Positions 1-55,880 of a stretch of 64,000 nt of DNA are shown one piece after another. Within the stretch, counting starts at the first letter, position 1. Each line of letters starts with the position of its first letter. A program made the translations under genes and the position numbers. Below the pieces are notes generated by a model. It did no database searches. It saw only the letters and a list, made by a program, of their open reading frames with translations, and was not told the DNA's origin. This stretch comes from an uncultured Acidimicrobiaceae bacterium (lineage in GTDB: Bacteria; Actinomycetota; Acidimicrobiia; Spongiisociales; UBA5794), in contig CAYLVM010000001.1 of assembly GCA_964387145.1 (NCBI GenBank), forward strand, positions 52,549-116,548. Reading direction: 5' to 3'.

Positions 1-617
1 TGAGCTTCGGAACCTACGAGCAGCGCGACCGGCGTCGGTGAGTTGCCGGGTGCCTTCCCCCCGTCGACGACGGTCGCGACGATCGTGAGGGTGTGTTCGT
101 GCAAACTTGTGACCGGATCGTCGAGGACGGTGAGCCGAGCGCGGCTATGTGCACCTGCACCCGCCCGGATCACTTTCGGAGACCAGAGGTCTGCGGTGCT
201 TCCCGTGGCAGCGACGTCCCAGCCGAGAGCGGTGGCAGTTCGGATCATCGTTCCGACGTTGCCGGGGTCAGCAACGTCGACGAGGACGAGCGTGTCATGT
301 TCCCGCAGGCCCACCGGGTCCGGGGTTCGGATCACAGCGACGGGACTCTGGGGTGTGCGTGTATCGGACGCGACGGACAGTACGTTCTCCGTGACGAGCG
401 TGAACGGGATGTTCGAACCGTGACACGCATCGATCGTCGCGACGTCGTCGGGTGTGCACAGAACGGTCTTGGGGGCGAACCCTTCAGCCAGGAAGTCGGC
501 GAAGACCACCGGTCCTTCGATCAGCGTTTCGCTCCGGGCTCTGCGCTCCTTTGCGCGGTGAAGCCCACGGATCGCCTTGATCCGGGGATTCGCCGTCGAT
601 GTGATGACCTCAAGCAT
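1..617 (-). CDS. TrmH/SpoU-family RNA 2'-O-methyltransferase (TsnR-like), 3' part truncated by the window edge
   Basis: The reverse-strand translation from ATG at 617 reads MLEVITSTANPRIKAIRGLH...DVADPGNVGTMIRTA...LWSPKVIRAGAGA, matching SpoU/TrmH motifs. It is missing from the ORF track because there is no stop codon inside the window. It lies downstream of rplT, as tsnR does in mycobacteria. Confidence 0.8.
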   Translation of the reverse strand, partial: MLEVITSTANPRIKAIRGLHRAKERRARSETLIEGPVVFADFLAEGFAPKTVLCTPDDVATIDACHGSNIPFTLVTENVLSVASDTRTPQSPVAVIRTPDPVGLREHDTLVLVDVADPGNVGTMIRTATALGWDVAATGSTADLWSPKVIRAGAGAHSRARLTVLDDPVTSLHEHTLTIVATVVDGGKAPGNSPTPVALLVGSEA

Positions 618-629
618 GAGATCTGGCGT

Positions 630-671
630 CTGGCGCTGATATGGCTCGTATACGGGCTGTATCAGCGCCAG
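630..671. repeat. 42-nt palindromic hairpin element, copy A (CTGGCGCTGATA...TATCAGCGCCAG), in the rplT-trmH spacer
   Basis: 12-bp perfect arms with a wobble-paired inner stem. A second copy with covarying arms lies at 49137-49178. Both share the left flank GGCGTCTGGCGC. Confidence 0.7.
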
Positions 672-682
672 ACACCAGGGGG

Positions 683-1045
683 TTAGGCGTCAGCTGTGGC
701 GTTGCTTGCCACGGTGACGAGGGCGGCGAACGCCTCAGGGTCGTTGACGGCCATCTCTGCGAGCATCTTGCGGTCGACGTCGATGTCGGCAGCCTTGAGA
801 CCGGCCATGAACTTCGAGTACGTCGTTCCGTTGATCCGGGCCGCAGCGTTGATGCGCTGGATCCACAGACGACGGAACTGGCCTTTGCGCGCACGACGAT
901 GGTCGTACGAGTCCTGCATTGCATGCATGACTTGCTCACGAGCGGCACGGTAGCGCCGACTTCTGGCCCCGGTATACCCGGAGGCCCGGTCCATTACTTT
1001 CTTGCGCTTCTTCCGCGCGTTCACAGATCGTTTCACACGAGCCAT
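683..1045 (-). CDS. rplT: 50S ribosomal protein L20
   Basis: [17 protein letters not shown]... has the typical L20 N-terminus. It is the last gene of the infC-rpmI-rplT operon. Confidence 0.95.
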
Positions 1046-2620: not shown

Positions 2621-3827
2621 GTGTCGCCCCTGTCGTGATATGACCCATTCGCTCCGCTTTCGTCGTGAGGTAGTCGTGGTTCTCGGCGGTCTCCCCCACC
2701 CAGATGGATTCACGTTCGACGACATCGACGCCGTAGCGTTGTAGTTGGGCGATCTTGTCCGGGTTGTTCGTGAGGAGCCGGACCGATGCGATACCGAGGT
2801 CGTGAAGGATCTGAGCGTCGACACCGTAGTGGCGTGCATCGTCGGCGTGCCCGATCTGGCGGTTGGCGTCCACGGTATCGAGTCCTTGCTCCTGAAGGTC
2901 GTAGGCTGCGATCTTGTCGAGGATCCCGATCCCTCTGCCTTCATGGGCGGCGTTGTACACGATCACACCCTCACCGGCCTCGGATATGAGTCGCATGGCC
3001 TCGTTGAGCTGGGAACCACAGTCGCAGCGAAGCGAACCGAAAACGTCACCGGTCAAACACACGGAGTGAATCCGGGTGAGAACGTTCTCTCTCCCGTCGA
3101 GAGAACCCATCGTCAACGCAACATGAGGGCTGTCATCGGTCTGGGCCTGATAGCCGATCAAGGTGAACTCACCGTAGCGGGTCGGAAGCGTGGCTTGGGA
3201 CTGGCGCCTCACGAGGTTCTCGGTCCTCCACCGATAGGCGACGAGGTCGTCGATCGAGATCATGACCATGTCATGGTCTCGCGCGAACTCCATCAGCGTC
3301 TCTCCGCGCGCCATCGTCCCGTCGTCGTTGACGATCTCACACAGCACACCAGCAGGAAAGAGGCCACACAGCCTGGCAAGGTCGACTGCTGCCTCCGTAT
3401 GGCCCTGGCGAGAGAGGACACCGCCTTCGAGGCTACGCAGCGGAAAGATGTGCCCTGGTCGACTGAAGTCGGACGGCTTGGCAGAGGGATCGACAACGGC
3501 TCGGATCGTTCGCGCACGGTCGGGGGCGGAGATGCCCGTTGTGGTGCCCTTCAGATAGTCGATCGACACCGTGAACGCCGTGTTGTGAGCTTCGGTGTTG
3601 TCGATCACCATCAGTGGCAACTCGAGCTCGTCGAGTCGCTCCCCGGTGGTGGGAAGACATATCAGGCCCGATGTGTAGCGAACCATGAAGGCGATACGCT
3701 CCGGCGTGACCTTCTCAGCAGCGATGATCAGGTCACCCTCGTTCTCTCGATCCTCGTTGTCGACGACGAGAACGAACTCGCCGCGACGCATAGCGTCGAG
3801 TGCTTCGGGGATCGTCGCGAGCTTCAT
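2607..3827 (-). CDS. ribBA: Bifunctional 3,4-dihydroxy-2-butanone-4-phosphate synthase / GTP cyclohydrolase II
   Basis: The N-terminal DHBP synthase part reads [17 protein letters not shown] and the C-terminal GTP cyclohydrolase II part reads CDCGSQL...[11 protein letters not shown]. Confidence 0.95.
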
Positions 3828-4432
3828 CGTGACGCTCCGATCATGCGTTCGACGTACTTGGCGATGACGTCGACTTCCAGGTTGACGGCGGTACCGGGCT
3901 GTGCTTCACCGAGCACGGTCACGGCAAGCGTGTGCGGGATCAGGACGATCTCGAACCATTGTGTGGGTTCTCCTGGGTCGCTGACCGCCGTGACGGTGAG
4001 GCTCGTACCGTCCACGGTGATCGAGCCCTTCTCGACCACGTAGCGCCCGAGTGCCTGGGGGAACTCGATGTGCATGCGCGATGCGTCTCCTTCCGCTTCG
4101 ATCGAACGGACGTACCCGACGCCATCGACGTGGCCTTGCACGATGTGGCCGTCGAATCGGCCTTCAGCGGGCATCGGTCGCTCGAGGTTCACCGAGTCAC
4201 ATGCCGTGAGCGATCCGATCGTGGTGCGTTCGAGTGTCTCTTGGACGGCGTCGACCGTGAACGATCCTTCTCCGCGTTTCGTCACGGTGAGACAGACCCC
4301 GTTGACCGAGACCGAATCCCCGATACCGAGTCCCGTGAGGCTGGACGATGCGTCGATCGTCACCTTCCGGCCCTTGGGGATGTCCGCGATCAGGGTGACC
4401 GTTCCGAGTTCGGAGACGATTCCGGTGAACAT
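3824..4432 (-). CDS. ribE: Riboflavin synthase alpha subunit
   Basis: [12 protein letters not shown]...VNGVCLTVT / two lumazine-binding repeats. Confidence 0.92.
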
Positions 4433-5478
4433 CAGTTCCTACCTCCTAGATGAGCGATGATCCTGACGTCAGAGCCGATGCTGCGAACGTCGGTGATCTC
4501 GAGTGGTATCGCCTCGGCGATCGTTGCGAACACCCCTCCGACTGCTGGAAGGCCGGTCCCGGCTGCGAGTTTCGCTCCGATGTAGACGACGAGTTCATCG
4601 ACCTCACCCGAGTCGAGAAAGGATCGAGCGATCCTGGCTCCACCTTCGACGAGCACCGAGCGGATCCCTTCATCACCCAGGCGATCGAGTACTCCCTCGA
4701 TAGCAGCTCCCGATGCCTCGGTTCCTTGGATCACGAGCGGGTTCCGTTCCGAGAGACGTGCCATCGCGGGAAGCTCGGAAGATCCCTTGAGTATCACCGG
4801 CCTCGGCTGCGGGCCGTCGTACCCATCGAGGCGAACGGTGAGTTGGGGGTCGTCGTTGCGCAGCGTCCCAGCGCCGACGAGAACCGCGTCGTGGGCCGCA
4901 CGGAGCCGATGGGCATCTCGACGTGCCGGGAGTTGGGTGATCCACTGCGACGTGGTGTCTGCTGCAGCGATCTGGCCGTCGAGGGTCATCGCGAGTTTCA
5001 GTGTCACGAAGGGTGTGCCGGCGCGCCGGTTCGCGAAGTACACGGGGTCGTTCGCCTCGATGACAGGTGACAGGTCGCTCTCGATGACGTCGATACCTGC
5101 ATCTCGGAGGCGTGTGATCCCAGCACCGCGAACCTGTGCGTCGGGATCGCGAGTTCCCACGATGACCCGTGAGATCCCTGCGTCGATGATGGCATCGGTG
5201 CATGGCGGTGTTCGACCGTGGTGGTCGCATGGCTCGAGGGTCACGATCATCGTGTGGCCCGAAACGTCGTCGAGGCCTTCGAGCGCGAGCCGCTCGGCGT
5301 GGGGTGTTCCGGGTCCCTCGTGGGCCGCGACCGAGAGAACCGCACCCTGGGGGTTGACGATGACGGCACCGACCCGTGGATTGGGATGCGGAAGCGTCGT
5401 TGCAGTTGCCTGCAACGCACGACGCATCAACTGATCCACGTCCGTGCCGTCGAGTTGGTTGTCGACAGCGCGACGCAT
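4432..5478 (-). CDS. ribD: Bifunctional diaminohydroxyphosphoribosylaminopyrimidine deaminase / 5-amino-6-(5-phosphoribosylamino)uracil reductase
   Basis: The deaminase part reads HAERLALEG...TLEPCDHHGRTPPC and the reductase domain follows. The true start ATG at 5478 (MRRAVDNQ) sits directly after the FMN riboswitch; the track ORF is extended to 5682. Confidence 0.9.
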   Translation of the reverse strand: MRRAVDNQLDGTDVDQLMRRALQATATTLPHPNPRVGAVIVNPQGAVLSVAAHEGPGTPHAERLALEGLDDVSGHTMIVTLEPCDHHGRTPPCTDAIIDAGISRVIVGTRDPDAQVRGAGITRLRDAGIDVIESDLSPVIEANDPVYFANRRAGTPFVTLKLAMTLDGQIAAADTTSQWITQLPARRDAHRLRAAHDAVLVGAGTLRNDDPQLTVRLDGYDGPQPRPVILKGSSELPAMARLSERNPLVIQGTEASGAAIEGVLDRLGDEGIRSVLVEGGARIARSFLDSGEVDELVVYIGAKLAAGTGLPAVGGVFATIAEAIPLEITDVRSIGSDVRIIAHLGGRN

Positions 5479-5485
5479 CAAGCGT

Positions 5486-5603
5486 CCCCTTTCTTCCATC
5501 CGGACTTTCACCGTCGACTCCGGATTTCCACCGGATCGGCCCCGTAGTGGGGTTCGCGGGCTTTGACCGCCGGTCGGGAGTTGCTCCCTGCCCCGAAAGA
5601 GGT
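5486..5603 (-). promoter_or_regulatory. FMN riboswitch (RFN element) in the ribD leader
   Basis: The minus-strand RNA reads CUUUCGGGGCAGGGAGCAACUCCCGACCGGCGGUCAAAGCCCGCGA...GGUGGAAAUCCGGAGUCGACGGUGAAAGUCCGGAUGGAAGAAAGGGG. This matches the conserved FMN aptamer blocks. The ribD Shine-Dalgarno AAAGGGGA lies in the 3' strand of P1. Confidence 0.9.
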
Positions 5604-5623
5604 ATGTGGCACATACGGTAGTG

Positions 5624-48585: not shown

Positions 48586-49076
48586 CGTGCGATCCTCGAT
48601 GCGAGGTGCCCGCTGTGCTGCATGTGGCACAGGGCAACGCCGAGCGCATCGGCGACGTCTGCGGGTCCCGAGACGGAAGTCAGTCCGAGGCGCATCGAGA
48701 CGACGGCAGCGATCTGGTCCTTGTCGGCAGAGCCCGACCCCGTGATGGTGAGCTTCATCTGCGATGGTGTGTACTCGGCCATGGTTATGCCGTACCCGGC
48801 AACCGTCGCCATGATGACTCCAGATGCACGGGCGACGGCGATCGCCGTACCTCTGTTCCTGTTCATGAACACCTGCTCGATCGCGGCACAGTCGACCTCG
48901 TACTCCCCGAGTACACCGAGGATGTCCGCTCGGAGCTCGAGGAGGCGTTGTGCCGTGGAGCCAGCGGGGTCGGTCCGGATGACTCCCGCCGTCACGGCTC
49001 GCGGGCGATCTGGATGTGATTCGACGATCCCGTACCCGGTGCGGGTGAGCCCGGGATCGATACCTAGAACGAACAT
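48582..49076 (-). CDS. ruvC: Crossover junction endodeoxyribonuclease RuvC
   Basis: MFVLGIDPGLTRTGYGIV...AIEQVF. The track ORF is extended to 49283. Confidence 0.93.
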   Translation of the reverse strand: MFVLGIDPGLTRTGYGIVESHPDRPRAVTAGVIRTDPAGSTAQRLLELRADILGVLGEYEVDCAAIEQVFMNRNRGTAIAVARASGVIMATVAGYGITMAEYTPSQMKLTITGSGSADKDQIAAVVSMRLGLTSVSGPADVADALGVALCHMQHSGHLASRIAR

Positions 49077-49136
49077 ATGTTCGGATGATAGGAGCGGGGT
49101 GTGACATTGCAAGTATCGATCCCCGTCCCTTGGCGT

Positions 49137-49178
49137 CTGGCGCCGATACAGCTCGCATCCGAGCTGTATCGGCGCCAG
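49137..49178. repeat. 42-nt perfect palindromic hairpin element, copy B (CTGGCGCCGATACAGCTCG-CATC-CGAGCTGTATCGGCGCCAG), in the yebC-ruvC spacer
   Basis: It has 19-bp perfect arms and is a paralog of copy A at 630-671, with compensatory C/T and G/A changes in the arms. Confidence 0.75.
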
Positions 49179-49206
49179 AGTCCAGATGCGCCGCGGGGAT
49201 GGGAGC

Positions 49207-49944
49207 TCACTCGAGGGTCGCCAACACCTCGTCCGGGATGTCGAAGTTGGCGTAGACCTCCTGAACGTCATCGAGATCCTCAAGTGCGTCCACGAGCCGG
49301 AGCACCTTGGGGGCGGTCACTGCATCGACGGCGACGGAGACCGAAGGAAGGTACGTCACGTCGGCGGAGTCGATCGATACATCCGCAGCTTCGAGTTCGG
49401 AACGCACGGCTGTGAGATCGCCAGGTTCACAGACGATCTCCCACTGGTCCCCTTCGGGAGTGATGTCGTCGGCACCACCTTCGAGTGCCGCCATCATCAC
49501 CGTGTCCTCGTCGCCCGATGCAAGGATGTACCCCTTCTGTTCGAAGAGGTAGCCGACAGATCCCGGTTCGCCAAGGTTCCCGCCGTTCTTCGTGAACGCT
49601 GAACGGACATCGGATGCGGCACGGTTGCGGTTGTCGGTGAGGATGTGCACGTAGAGCGCCACTCCGCCGGGTGCGTACCCCTCGTAGAAGGCCTCCGTGT
49701 AGTCGACACCGTCGACATCACCGCTCCCTCGTGCGATCGCGCGATCGATGTTGTCCTTTGGGACCGAGTTGTCCTTCGCCTTCTGGACCGCCGTGAAAAG
49801 GGTTGGATTTGCAGAGAGGTCGTTGCCTCCATTACGCGCAGCGGACTCGATCGCCTTGATCAACTTGGCGAACAACTTGCCGCGTTTGGCGTCCTGACGC
49901 CCCTTGCGGTGCTTGATGTTCGCCCATTTCGAATGTCCAGACAT
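49207..49944 (-). CDS. YebC/PmpR family DNA-binding transcriptional regulator
   Basis: [28 protein letters not shown]... Confidence 0.95.
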
Positions 49945-55433: not shown

Positions 55434-55880
55434 TCACGGAGCTTCGACGGCCTCTTCATAGATCCCGGTGATCTCGCCGGAGAGGCCGTCGACGGTCACC
55501 AACGCCTGACGGTCCGGGGTGGGGCCTGCAGAGAATACGAGAACCTGCCAGATTGGTTTGGCGAGTGGACCGCGGAATCCCAGGGTTGCTGATCCGTGTC
55601 CGAAAGCGAACGATGTGGTGTCGCCGGCCTTCTCGATCGCCTCCATGTCCGTCACCTCGAGCTTCCATCCGCCAAGGAACTGGTAGCCGGCGATCAAGGT
55701 GAGTGGCAGGACCGCGGTGAACCACATGACATCCACCCCCGAGACGACCACGAGCGCTGCACTTCCAGCTGCCATGACGAGGTACACGGCTCCGGCGGTA
55801 CGGCGCTTGGCCGTGTCGAGCCGACGGTACGGTGTCAGCGGTTCATCACCGGGGTACCCAGCCGTTCCGGCGCCCGTCAT
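55434..55880 (-). CDS. Hypothetical membrane protein (two transmembrane helices), downstream of the MMPL gene
   Basis: A 148-aa ORF with a 4-nt gap to the MMPL stop and hydrophobic segments AVYLVMAAGSAALVVV / WFTAVLPLTLIAGY. No family was recognised. Confidence 0.55.
   Translation of the reverse strand: MTGAGTAGYPGDEPLTPYRRLDTAKRRTAGAVYLVMAAGSAALVVVSGVDVMWFTAVLPLTLIAGYQFLGGWKLEVTDMEAIEKAGDTTSFAFGHGSATLGFRGPLAKPIWQVLVFSAGPTPDRQALVTVDGLSGEITGIYEEAVEAP

Follow-up and report, generated by a model that had tools for sequence, protein, structure and literature searches.

We analysed a 64-kb stretch of DNA (the window) from contig CAYLVM010000001.1 of an uncultured Acidimicrobiaceae bacterium. It contains two palindromic hairpins, copies A and B, which lie 48.5 kb apart in spacers between genes. 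Both belong to a palindromic repeat family that is previously undescribed. More than 100 related hairpins are present in actinobacterial metagenome-assembled genomes (MAGs) and metagenomes; A and B are family members and not a private pair. We consider it reasonably probable that they are dispersed palindromic DNA repeats of an Acidimicrobiia-like actinobacterium, similar to the repetitive extragenic palindromic (REP) elements, with a candidate cognate protein that joins a winged helix-turn-helix (wHTH) to a nuclease. The analysis demonstrates the membership of the family, the location of its copies, their gain and decay, and the association between the nuclease gene and the repeat.

The size of the family was estimated with two scans. 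The exact pattern TCTGGCGCNGAT-N(12-26)-ATCNGCGCCAGA, applied to one genome per species, gave 15 loci in the species-representative genomes. Seven of them are in one Actinomycetota MAG, and the others are in further Actinomycetota MAGs. With a slightly looser pattern, the metagenome contigs presented at least 118 loci. A scan of viral contigs presented no match. A preliminary description of the window had left room for only two copies in existence. The wider search removes that possibility.

All the family hairpins have a core of 44-46 nt, from TCTGGCG to CGCCAGA, with a 4-nt loop. Their stems measure 20-27 bp and end in the paired heptads yWRGGmS-TCTGGCG. The family unit consists of this core plus the second, degenerate outer heptad (yWRGGmS), often with a C-run/G-run, and comes to about 58-87 bp in all. 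Three main subtypes can be distinguished. The window subtype (about 45 copies among the matches listed) reads yWRGGmS-TCTGGCGCYGATACRGCTCG-nATn-CGAGCYGTATCRGCGCCAGA-SkCCyWr. The soil subtype, TCTGGCGCGGAGAT-N5-6-CC..., has an inner stem that is hypervariable yet perfectly complementary. Finally, the SXKB01 subtype shows an extra arm-like flank. Its copies (L008, L016, L017, L020, L021, L034 and L036 in our numbering of loci) carry a diverged arm-like segment, TTCTGGGCGCGATCTGTTCCGAAAT, ~4 nt outside the hairpin on one side. It means that this unit is asymmetric, with three arms.

In 35 distinct copies of the window type, the GG/CC of the outer heptad and the central AT are invariant, and the search pattern did not demand them. 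The two arms also covary. We counted 79 double-change cells against 44±7 in shuffled alignments, and none of the 500 shuffles reached the observed value. A covariance model built from the alignment of these 35 copies adds diverged members. With it, L091 (8.6 kb) shows six copies, and L127 and L095 show three each, within 1.7 kb and 3.4 kb, respectively. The diverged members conserve TCTGGCG/CGCCAGA and vary in the neighbouring GAT.

Copies A and B are the two longest inverted repeats of the window. A repeat search placed their arms at 623-650/651-678 and 49131-49155/49160-49184, respectively. The preliminary description had located both hairpins correctly, and their sequences read as quoted there. 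The left flank GGCGTCTGGCGC that it assigned to both copies is confirmed by the sequence, as is the compensatory change of a C·G arm pair to T·A between them. The elements are thus real, but the length of 42 nt given to them is too short, and the palindromes extend over 58 nt by the family model. This model scores the two copies at 69-75 bits (E about 1e-21 to 1e-24), while the next-best match in the window reaches 15 bits. The latter is an unrelated inverted repeat at 55439-55497, with 17-nt arms (88% complementary) and a 25-nt spacer. No third family copy was found in the window by the looser motif or by the covariance model.

Folding of both strands, proposed earlier as a check, shows that each is very stable, at -42 to -59 kcal/mol (z of -8 to -9.6 relative to shuffled sequences). 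In copy A only the plus strand is fully paired. The wobbles that had been noted for plus-strand RNA are present there as three G·U pairs of the inner stem, on that strand only, and 21 pairs are kept; the minus (mRNA) strand has A·C mismatches instead. The sequence of copy A is the same in seven conspecific contigs (L001-L007) and hence uninformative for comparison. A variant ortholog is present in L099.

The second line of evidence is the position of the copies. Genes in the other loci were called with a simple codon-position GC caller, which is heuristic. In the contexts where both neighbours were callable, 15 copies lie between tandem genes, 11 between convergent genes and only one between divergent genes; about 7 of the 27 would be divergent at random. 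The copies are found 0-30 nt downstream of stop codons or tRNA 3' ends, two of them directly 3' of tRNA genes. From the inward-pointing stop to the core, the median distance is 14 nt and the most frequent one is 3 nt; in the modal case, TAG or TGA falls inside the outer heptad. The neighbours show no functional theme. They include a nitroreductase, an S-adenosylmethionine (SAM) synthetase, an ABC transporter, an inositol-phosphate synthase and an amidohydrolase. Likewise, only ordinary genes separate close copies (a DUF559 gene, an alcohol dehydrogenase). The SAM synthetase of an Actinomycetota MAG (L010 663-1877), immediately downstream of a family hairpin, is of the archaeal type (PF01941, E = 4e-104).

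The two copies of the window follow the same rule. The gene calls agree with the earlier assignment of both to the space between a stop codon and the next start in minus-strand operons. Copy A lies in the order infC-rpmI-rplT, copy A, SpoU/TrmH-family methyltransferase, and copy B in the order pdxS-pdxT-yebC, copy B, ruvC-ruvA-ruvB. The rplT stop is 3 nt from the 58-nt palindrome of copy A and 10 nt from its 44-nt core. The core of copy B begins 27 nt downstream of the yebC stop. The location after stops is explained most simply by tolerance, with the few bases after a stop codon as the only neutral target in compact spacers. For copy B, the space available for insertion is about 4-10 nt before the ruvC -35 element. 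The usefulness of a hairpin as a transcript end may also contribute. A CRISPR repeat was considered and rejected. The copies are solitary, whole genes lie between them in other loci, and no regular array is formed.

The third line of evidence comes from the comparison of close relatives. At 91%, 88% and 84% YebC identity, the yebC-ruvC spacer measures 47, 14 and 88 nt, and the element is absent in all three. The ruvC promoter and LexA box downstream align perfectly. Therefore, copy B belongs to a block of ~87 nt (49120-49206) that is specific to the lineage of the window. The limits of this block were set by alignments with L141 (empty site), L142 and L143, together with the decayed orthologs of L150 and L149. 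Folding predicts an outer helix between its imperfect outer arms, TCCCCG...CGGGGA; it means that the inserted unit exceeds the 58-nt palindrome.

In L150, a relative with 93% identity, the orthologous block has eight changes in the 44-nt core and folds no better than shuffles (z = -1.4 and -1.0). The ortholog in L149 (95%) is still more decayed, and the contig ends inside the element. Since its ortholog decays in sister lineages, copy B seems to be dispensable, as these alignments argue. No family copy was found in about 114 kb of syntenic DNA from eight relatives. The hairpins that follow rplT in other lineages are unrelated to copy A: a 14-bp stem and a U-rich tail in L144-146, and a 13-bp GC stem in L148. 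In L147 there is hardly any spacer.

The fourth line of evidence is a protein-coding gene bracketed by the repeat. L091 and L095, which were found through their hairpins and have different neighbours, each contain a gene of ~305 codons between two family hairpins. In Pfam, its product has an N-terminal AbiEi_4 domain and a C-terminal REase_MTES_1575/DUF559 domain. In L093/L060, of the soil subtype, the gene of a homolog with 27% identity is preceded by a perfect hairpin and followed, right after its stop, by two decayed hairpins in tandem. We also collected loci through the protein alone (L151-160, L161-166 and L167-172). The homologs P0290, P0260 and P0314 are 64-71% identical to the L091 protein, each in a single genomic context, and a 44-nt TCTGGCG...CGCCAGA hairpin lies on both sides of each gene. 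In these three loci, the hairpin is present at 6 of 6 nuclease flanks versus 0 of ~16 other junctions. Apart from the hairpins that flank the nuclease gene, L161, L167 and the 14.7-kb L093 contain no family hairpin.

The association reaches a cultured organism. In Tsukamurella tyrosinosolvens NCTC13231, the gene of a DUF559 protein with 26% identity (WP_068740572.1) is flanked by two 41-nt palindromes, TGCGGTGGAT...ATCCACCGCA. They differ from the window family and recur at other intergenic sites of this genome, among them one between convergent stops (9 and 8 nt away) and one between divergent starts. Every gene of this architecture that we examined, in six metagenomic lineages and in Tsukamurella, has hairpins on both sides, and the hairpin subtype shifts along with the protein over a range from 27% to 92% identity. 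The upstream hairpins lie 40-85 nt before the start of the nuclease gene. In five assemblies, contigs break off in the loop of the downstream hairpin.

An AlphaFold2 model of the protein (mean confidence, pLDDT, of 86.6) was compared with known folds. The first ~200 residues match AbiEi (6y8q, E = 3.5e-7) and Rv2827c. The last ~100 residues match the catalytic domain of I-Bth0305I (3r3p, TM score of 0.77), NGO0050 (3hrl) and Vsr (1vsr). A sequence search of the PDB with the nuclease profile returned nothing meaningful, and only the fold search was informative. The nuclease motif GR.DF...E.D..H..RD is invariant. At the loci examined, no AbiEii toxin gene is adjacent to the nuclease gene. To our knowledge, the AbiEi_4-DUF559 fusion family has no described function, and we found no literature that links DUF559 or AbiEi_4 proteins to repeats.

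Other observations concern these loci. The outer ends of the repeat (alignment columns 1-5 and 54-58) read CCWGG, CTWGG, CCTAG or CCAAG. CCWGG is a Dcm-type site, where the Vsr endonuclease acts on T:G mismatches, and the other end forms correspond to its deamination products. The presence of Dcm-like ends together with a Vsr-like domain in the partner protein may be a coincidence. In L161, a gene at 3701-4936, two genes from the bracketed nuclease gene, encodes DUF222 plus HNH, which is the architecture of the mycobacterial REP13E12 repeat proteins. In one MAG (L152 1-110 against L151 2390-2470), the upstream nuclease hairpin keeps only the loop and the right arm, with unrelated sequence to its left. 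Either the assembly is chimeric here, or a rearrangement has its breakpoint within the palindrome. We also considered the short contigs of nuclease homologs as evidence of repeat-induced breaks. This argument was dropped because the YebC contigs are equally short, and only the contigs that end in a loop were kept.

The complementarity of the arms could be maintained in DNA or in RNA. Rfam had no family at the gathering threshold in the whole window, nor with permissive E-values at both sites. Its sub-threshold matches are generic hairpins (miRNA precursors), with 14-30 bits against thresholds of 43-268. We oriented the copies by their upstream gene and counted mismatches of the stem on the sense strand. 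There are 23 G·U and 33 A·C, which means that wobble pairing in the mRNA is not preserved. The absence of an Rfam match, the lack of a G·U preference and the lost fold of the L150 ortholog are the reasons to read the arms at the DNA level. Arm covariation is, on these comparisons, better explained by the maintenance or copying of a DNA palindrome than by selection on RNA. The hint of an RNA role in the preliminary description is not supported, since the wobbles of copy A are on the non-mRNA strand and the ortholog of copy B has lost its fold. Of its readings as a REP-like or as an RNA-processing hairpin, the first is supported by more than 100 copies, their location 3' of genes, insertion polymorphism and a candidate nuclease. 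The second finds no Rfam match and no G·U bias. In some loci, the palindrome extends 8-17 nt into the locus-specific flank, including the last upstream codons (L063 5440-5535, L136 1885-1972 and L123 3890-3967). This extension suggests fold-back or templated copying of DNA outward.

These results are consistent with the following mechanism. New copies would insert just behind stop codons or tRNA 3' ends, where a few nucleotides tolerate it. Their arms would stay complementary by copying or correction of DNA, not by selection on RNA, and single copies would decay unless they are renewed. The likely partner is a single-copy gene. One half of its product is a DNA-binding winged helix of the AbiEi type, and the other half is a Vsr-like/DUF559 PD-(D/E)XK nuclease. 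Two repeat copies bracket this gene just as REPs bracket the genes of the REP-associated tyrosine transposases (RAYTs). The wHTH domain probably reads the conserved outer stem, and the nuclease might nick or cleave there and so drive the copying. Binding, cleavage, mobilisation and every RNA-level effect are steps that we infer.

When transcribed, A and B would fold into highly stable hairpins, A at the 3' end of the rplT message and B at that of yebC. They are probably sites of pausing or termination without a U-tract, or barriers to 3'-exonucleases, and this role is probably secondary. The SpoU/TrmH start codon is 4 nt past the palindrome of copy A and 11 nt past its core, which leaves no space for a free Shine-Dalgarno sequence outside the hairpin. 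Copy A probably occludes the access of ribosomes to this start.

Several results weigh against this interpretation. The core heptads were fixed by the search patterns, and their conservation in the scanned set is partly ascertainment; it is seen independently only in the protein-ascertained loci and in the copies found by the model. The nuclease gene was not found within the 64-kb window. The orientation of the two flanking hairpins is inconsistent across loci, unlike the inverted REPs at RAYT genes, and for this reason we rejected a rule of inverted orientation. Neither a target-site duplication nor a defined cleavage site was found, nor was recent transposition between near-identical genomes. 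The flanking hairpins could just insulate a potentially toxic nuclease gene, or be autoregulatory operators, without mobilisation. Finally, the unrelated hairpins at the same position after rplT in other lineages argue for a selected role as RNA or terminator, at least for copy A.

The last point leads to the first alternative. The copies could be bidirectional terminators without a U-tract ('I-shaped'), like the Tuberculosis Rho-independent terminator (TRIT) motif, or stabilisers of mRNA 3' ends. A trans-acting factor would read the double-stranded RNA stem, and dispersal would be secondary. We regard this as unlikely, although it accounts for the tight placement after stops and tRNA genes, and for the excess of convergent and the shortage of divergent contexts. 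It would also explain the unrelated strong hairpins after rplT in L144 and L148, and the position of copy B exactly between the yebC stop and the SOS promoter of ruvC. A precedent exists in Mycobacterium, where TRIT comprises 147 conserved palindromes at stop codons (PMC3152330). Canonical hairpin+U sites occur at chance level in the window (9 versus 8.9 expected, and 8 versus 8.3), so another signal may serve and hairpin-only signals could still matter for transcription.

On the other hand, both copies lack the U-tract that, according to PMC3993855, mycobacterial RNA polymerase needs in vitro. On the mRNA strand, copy A is followed by CGCCAGATCTCATG and copy B by CGCCAAGGGACGGGG. A terminator scan of the window did not pick up either copy, and the earlier statement that this is not a classic terminator is borne out. 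Predictions of TRIT and I-shaped terminators barely overlap the mapped 3' ends of M. tuberculosis (10.1101/2022.06.01.494293). The mRNA strand has no G·U preference, and in copy A it holds three A·C mismatches. The copy B ortholog decays in sister lineages, empty sites elsewhere have no substitute hairpin, and one Tsukamurella copy lies between divergent starts. Moreover, a terminator leaves unexplained the constant bracketing of the nuclease gene, including upstream of its own promoter.

The second alternative is that the repeats are ordinary MITEs (miniature transposable elements with inverted repeats), that is, deletion derivatives of a DDE insertion sequence (IS) whose terminal inverted repeats form the palindrome. 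Their size of 58-87 bp, their dispersal and the insertion polymorphism would fit, and TA flanks many copies (CTAGG...CCTAG). However, this origin is very improbable. The dinucleotides at the flanks change together as inverted and not as direct pairs (CA...TG in 11 copies; columns 2/57 and 3/56), so they are part of the palindrome and not a target duplication. A TA target duplication is ruled out by this variation, and none accompanies the insertion of copy B. We searched about 1 Mb of loci for a full-length IS with family termini. No arm pair was separated by a transposase gene, and single arms occurred at chance level. Ordinary genes lie between nearby copies, and the viral contigs had no match.

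Operators of a global DNA-binding regulator are a very improbable third alternative. In this case, the AbiEi-like protein, for instance, would act as a repressor only, and the copies would define a regulon. Binding to inverted repeats in their own promoters is established for AbiEi-type wHTH proteins, and the partner matches the AbiEi fold. The hairpins upstream of the nuclease gene are 40-85 nt from its start, and the outer heptads are conserved, in contrast to the freely varying inner stem. Conversely, the sites are at 3' ends, between convergent genes and after tRNAs, and not at promoters. The neighbouring genes are functionally unrelated, which also speaks against the operator of a characterised regulator considered in the preliminary description. 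Palindromy covers all of the 44-58 nt, with the variable inner stem included, and a spaced operator would not need this. Copies are gained and lost between close relatives, and the nuclease motif of the protein is intact.

Hardly credible, finally, is a structured non-coding RNA or an RNase processing site, possibly antisense (copy A is fully paired on the plus strand only): both strands fold very stably and this plus strand keeps its 21 pairs by three G·U, but Rfam gave no match above noise, three transitions on one strand have a chance of ~1 in 4, the family has no strand bias, no promoter is evident, and the structure is lost in the ortholog.

The features around both copies are collected in Table 1. 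Copy B was inserted immediately upstream of the ruvC promoter. The ruvC start codon (49074-49076, minus strand) is ~8 nt after the -10 element, and for this reason the ruvC mRNA is probably leaderless; the overlapping LexA box indicates that it is probably SOS-regulated as well. This arrangement of promoter and LexA box is kept in L141, L143 and L150, and not in L142.

Table 1. Coordinates of copies A and B and of the features next to them in the 64-kb window.
Feature	Position	Strand	Sequence or description	Basis
Copy A	630-671		CTGGCGCTGATATGGCTCGTATACGGGCTGTATCAGCGCCAG	Sequence read in the window; extent from the preliminary description
Copy A full repeat	622..679	.	58-nt palindrome between the rplT stop and the SpoU/TrmH start	Family-model alignment
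Copy A core hairpin	629-672		TCTGGCGCTGAT...ATCAGCGCCAGA; outer heptads TCTGGCG / CACCAGG	
Copy B	49137-49178		CTGGCGCCGATACAGCTCGCATCCGAGCTGTATCGGCGCCAG	Sequence read in the window; extent from the preliminary description
Copy B full repeat	49129..49186	.	58-nt palindrome	Family-model alignment
Copy B core hairpin	49136-49179		Perfect 20-bp stem, 4-nt loop	
Copy B inserted block	49120..49206	.	~87 nt; copy B plus imperfect outer arms TCCCCG...CGGGGA; absent from the spacer of relatives	Alignments with relatives; folding
SpoU/TrmH-family methyltransferase gene, 5' part	1..617	-	ATG 615-617	PF00588 in L001-L007
rplT (L20)	683..1045	-	Stop 683-685	PF00453
yebC/pmpR-family gene	49207..49944	-	Stop 49207-49209, directly abuts the inserted block	
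ruvC promoter-like site	49112-49085	-	TTGCAA-16 nt-TATCAT; sigma-70-like	Promoter scan
LexA/Cheo-type box	49071-49082	-	GAACATATGTTC; overlaps the ruvC ATG (49074-49076)	

Other elements were observed in the window and in the loci compared. A full-length flavin mononucleotide (FMN) riboswitch (RF00050, 108.7 bits) is present at 5484-5604 on the minus strand, upstream of a riboflavin operon. This operon adjoins infC-rpmI-rplT, and its ribBA and ribH genes are visible in the syntenic loci L001 and L144. L041 (7329-7373), L048 (5095-5139) and L058 (7286-7330) contain a composite element, TCTGGCGCAGACCAGGTCTCTGGCGCAGACCTGGTCTGCGCCAGA. It has the arm TCTGGCGCAGACC twice as a direct and once as an inverted repeat. 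A longer perfect inverted repeat, ACAGCGCCC...GGGCGCTGT, encloses the element. In L077, a 2-kb marine contig, the decamer CCTCTGGCGC/G occurs at least nine times, on both strands and inside what looks like coding sequence; it has no relation to the hairpin family.

The repeat also affects assembly and annotation. Many metagenome and MAG contigs stop inside hairpins, often exactly in the loop (L149, L037, L046, L060, L068, L155 and L157-L160). The repeat is thus a systematic assembly breakpoint. Open reading frames (ORFs) that read through the hairpins (window 49085-49255 and 641-1273) give a recurring pseudo-peptide, ...SGA[DE]TARIRAVSAP[DE].... The protein P0241 bears it as a C-terminal extension, which means that the repeat generates annotation artefacts. 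Recognising these palindromes, which break contigs and create spurious ORF extensions, improves the assembly and annotation of MAGs.

A wider proposal can be made tentatively, and we would rather doubt than assert it in full. Actinomycetota might have a REP/RAYT-like system built on another enzyme. In it, a single-copy, vertically inherited AbiEi_4/DUF559 nuclease would recognise the outer stem of the lineage-specific repeat that brackets its gene, and would seed or maintain dozens of copies at the 3' ends of genes; TRIT could be of the same kind. If this is true, there would be a testable function for AbiEi_4-DUF559, a large and uncharacterised actinobacterial family whose proteins currently carry the annotation 'type IV toxin-antitoxin antitoxin domain'. 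The REP/RAYT paradigm, in which a domesticated enzyme is paired with genomic repeats of its own, would reach another phylum and another class of enzyme. The proposal would also give an origin to the conserved-sequence hairpins at actinobacterial stop codons, perhaps including TRIT. The status of these hairpins as terminators has been disputed since 2011.

Compared with known systems, the family shares some traits with each. Intrinsic (Rho-independent) terminators are also GC-rich hairpins directly downstream of genes. However, here the U-tract is absent (7-9 nt criterion), the stem is far longer, the same sequence is found at unrelated genes, and copies come and go as mobile DNA does. Bacterial MITEs such as Correia/NEMIS, RUP and ERIC are likewise small, dispersed, palindromic and co-transcribed, and they can form RNA hairpins. 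In contrast with them, our repeats are nearly pure palindromes, with no TA or other target duplication and no parent IS found. The candidate partner protein matches the fold of the AbiEi antitoxins (type IV toxin-antitoxin systems) without their adjacent AbiEii toxin gene. Its nuclease part matches the fold of I-Bth0305I, a Vsr-like homing endonuclease, although it is not intron-encoded.

TRIT is closer. Like our repeats, its members are actinobacterial palindromic hairpins of conserved sequence, bidirectional and in many copies, with a very narrow spread around stop codons and often overlapping the end of the coding sequence (PMC3152330). The RNIE paper reported this motif as confined to Mycobacterium (PMC3152330). 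Our exact-pattern scan with one genome per species gave no Mycobacterium locus, in a comparison with TRIT made by description only. We know of no associated protein reported for TRIT.

The REP/REPIN and RAYT systems of Proteobacteria differ from our family in several respects. The stem here measures 20-27 bp versus 8-12 bp in REPs, and the unpaired GTAG or CGTC tag of REPs is absent, with paired ends instead (PMC3733652). The bracketed gene encodes an AbiEi-wHTH plus a Vsr-like PD-(D/E)XK nuclease and not a Y1/HUH transposase; no Y1_Tnp gene was seen beside the copies examined, in a non-exhaustive screen of the loci. The hosts of our family are Actinomycetota, and this phylum name is absent from the main text of a REP survey (PMC3733652). 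The likeness concerns the organisation as a whole. By the copy number used to define REPs, the family has more than 100 copies overall and up to six per 8.6 kb, with two in the 64-kb window. By location, its 15 tandem, 11 convergent and single divergent contexts agree with the short extragenic palindromes of REPs, which occur in many copies and mostly between unidirectional or convergent genes. In both cases, the repeat families are lineage-specific, the repeat and the protein diverge together, and an enzyme gene that is single-copy and syntenically stable lies between copies of its own repeat.

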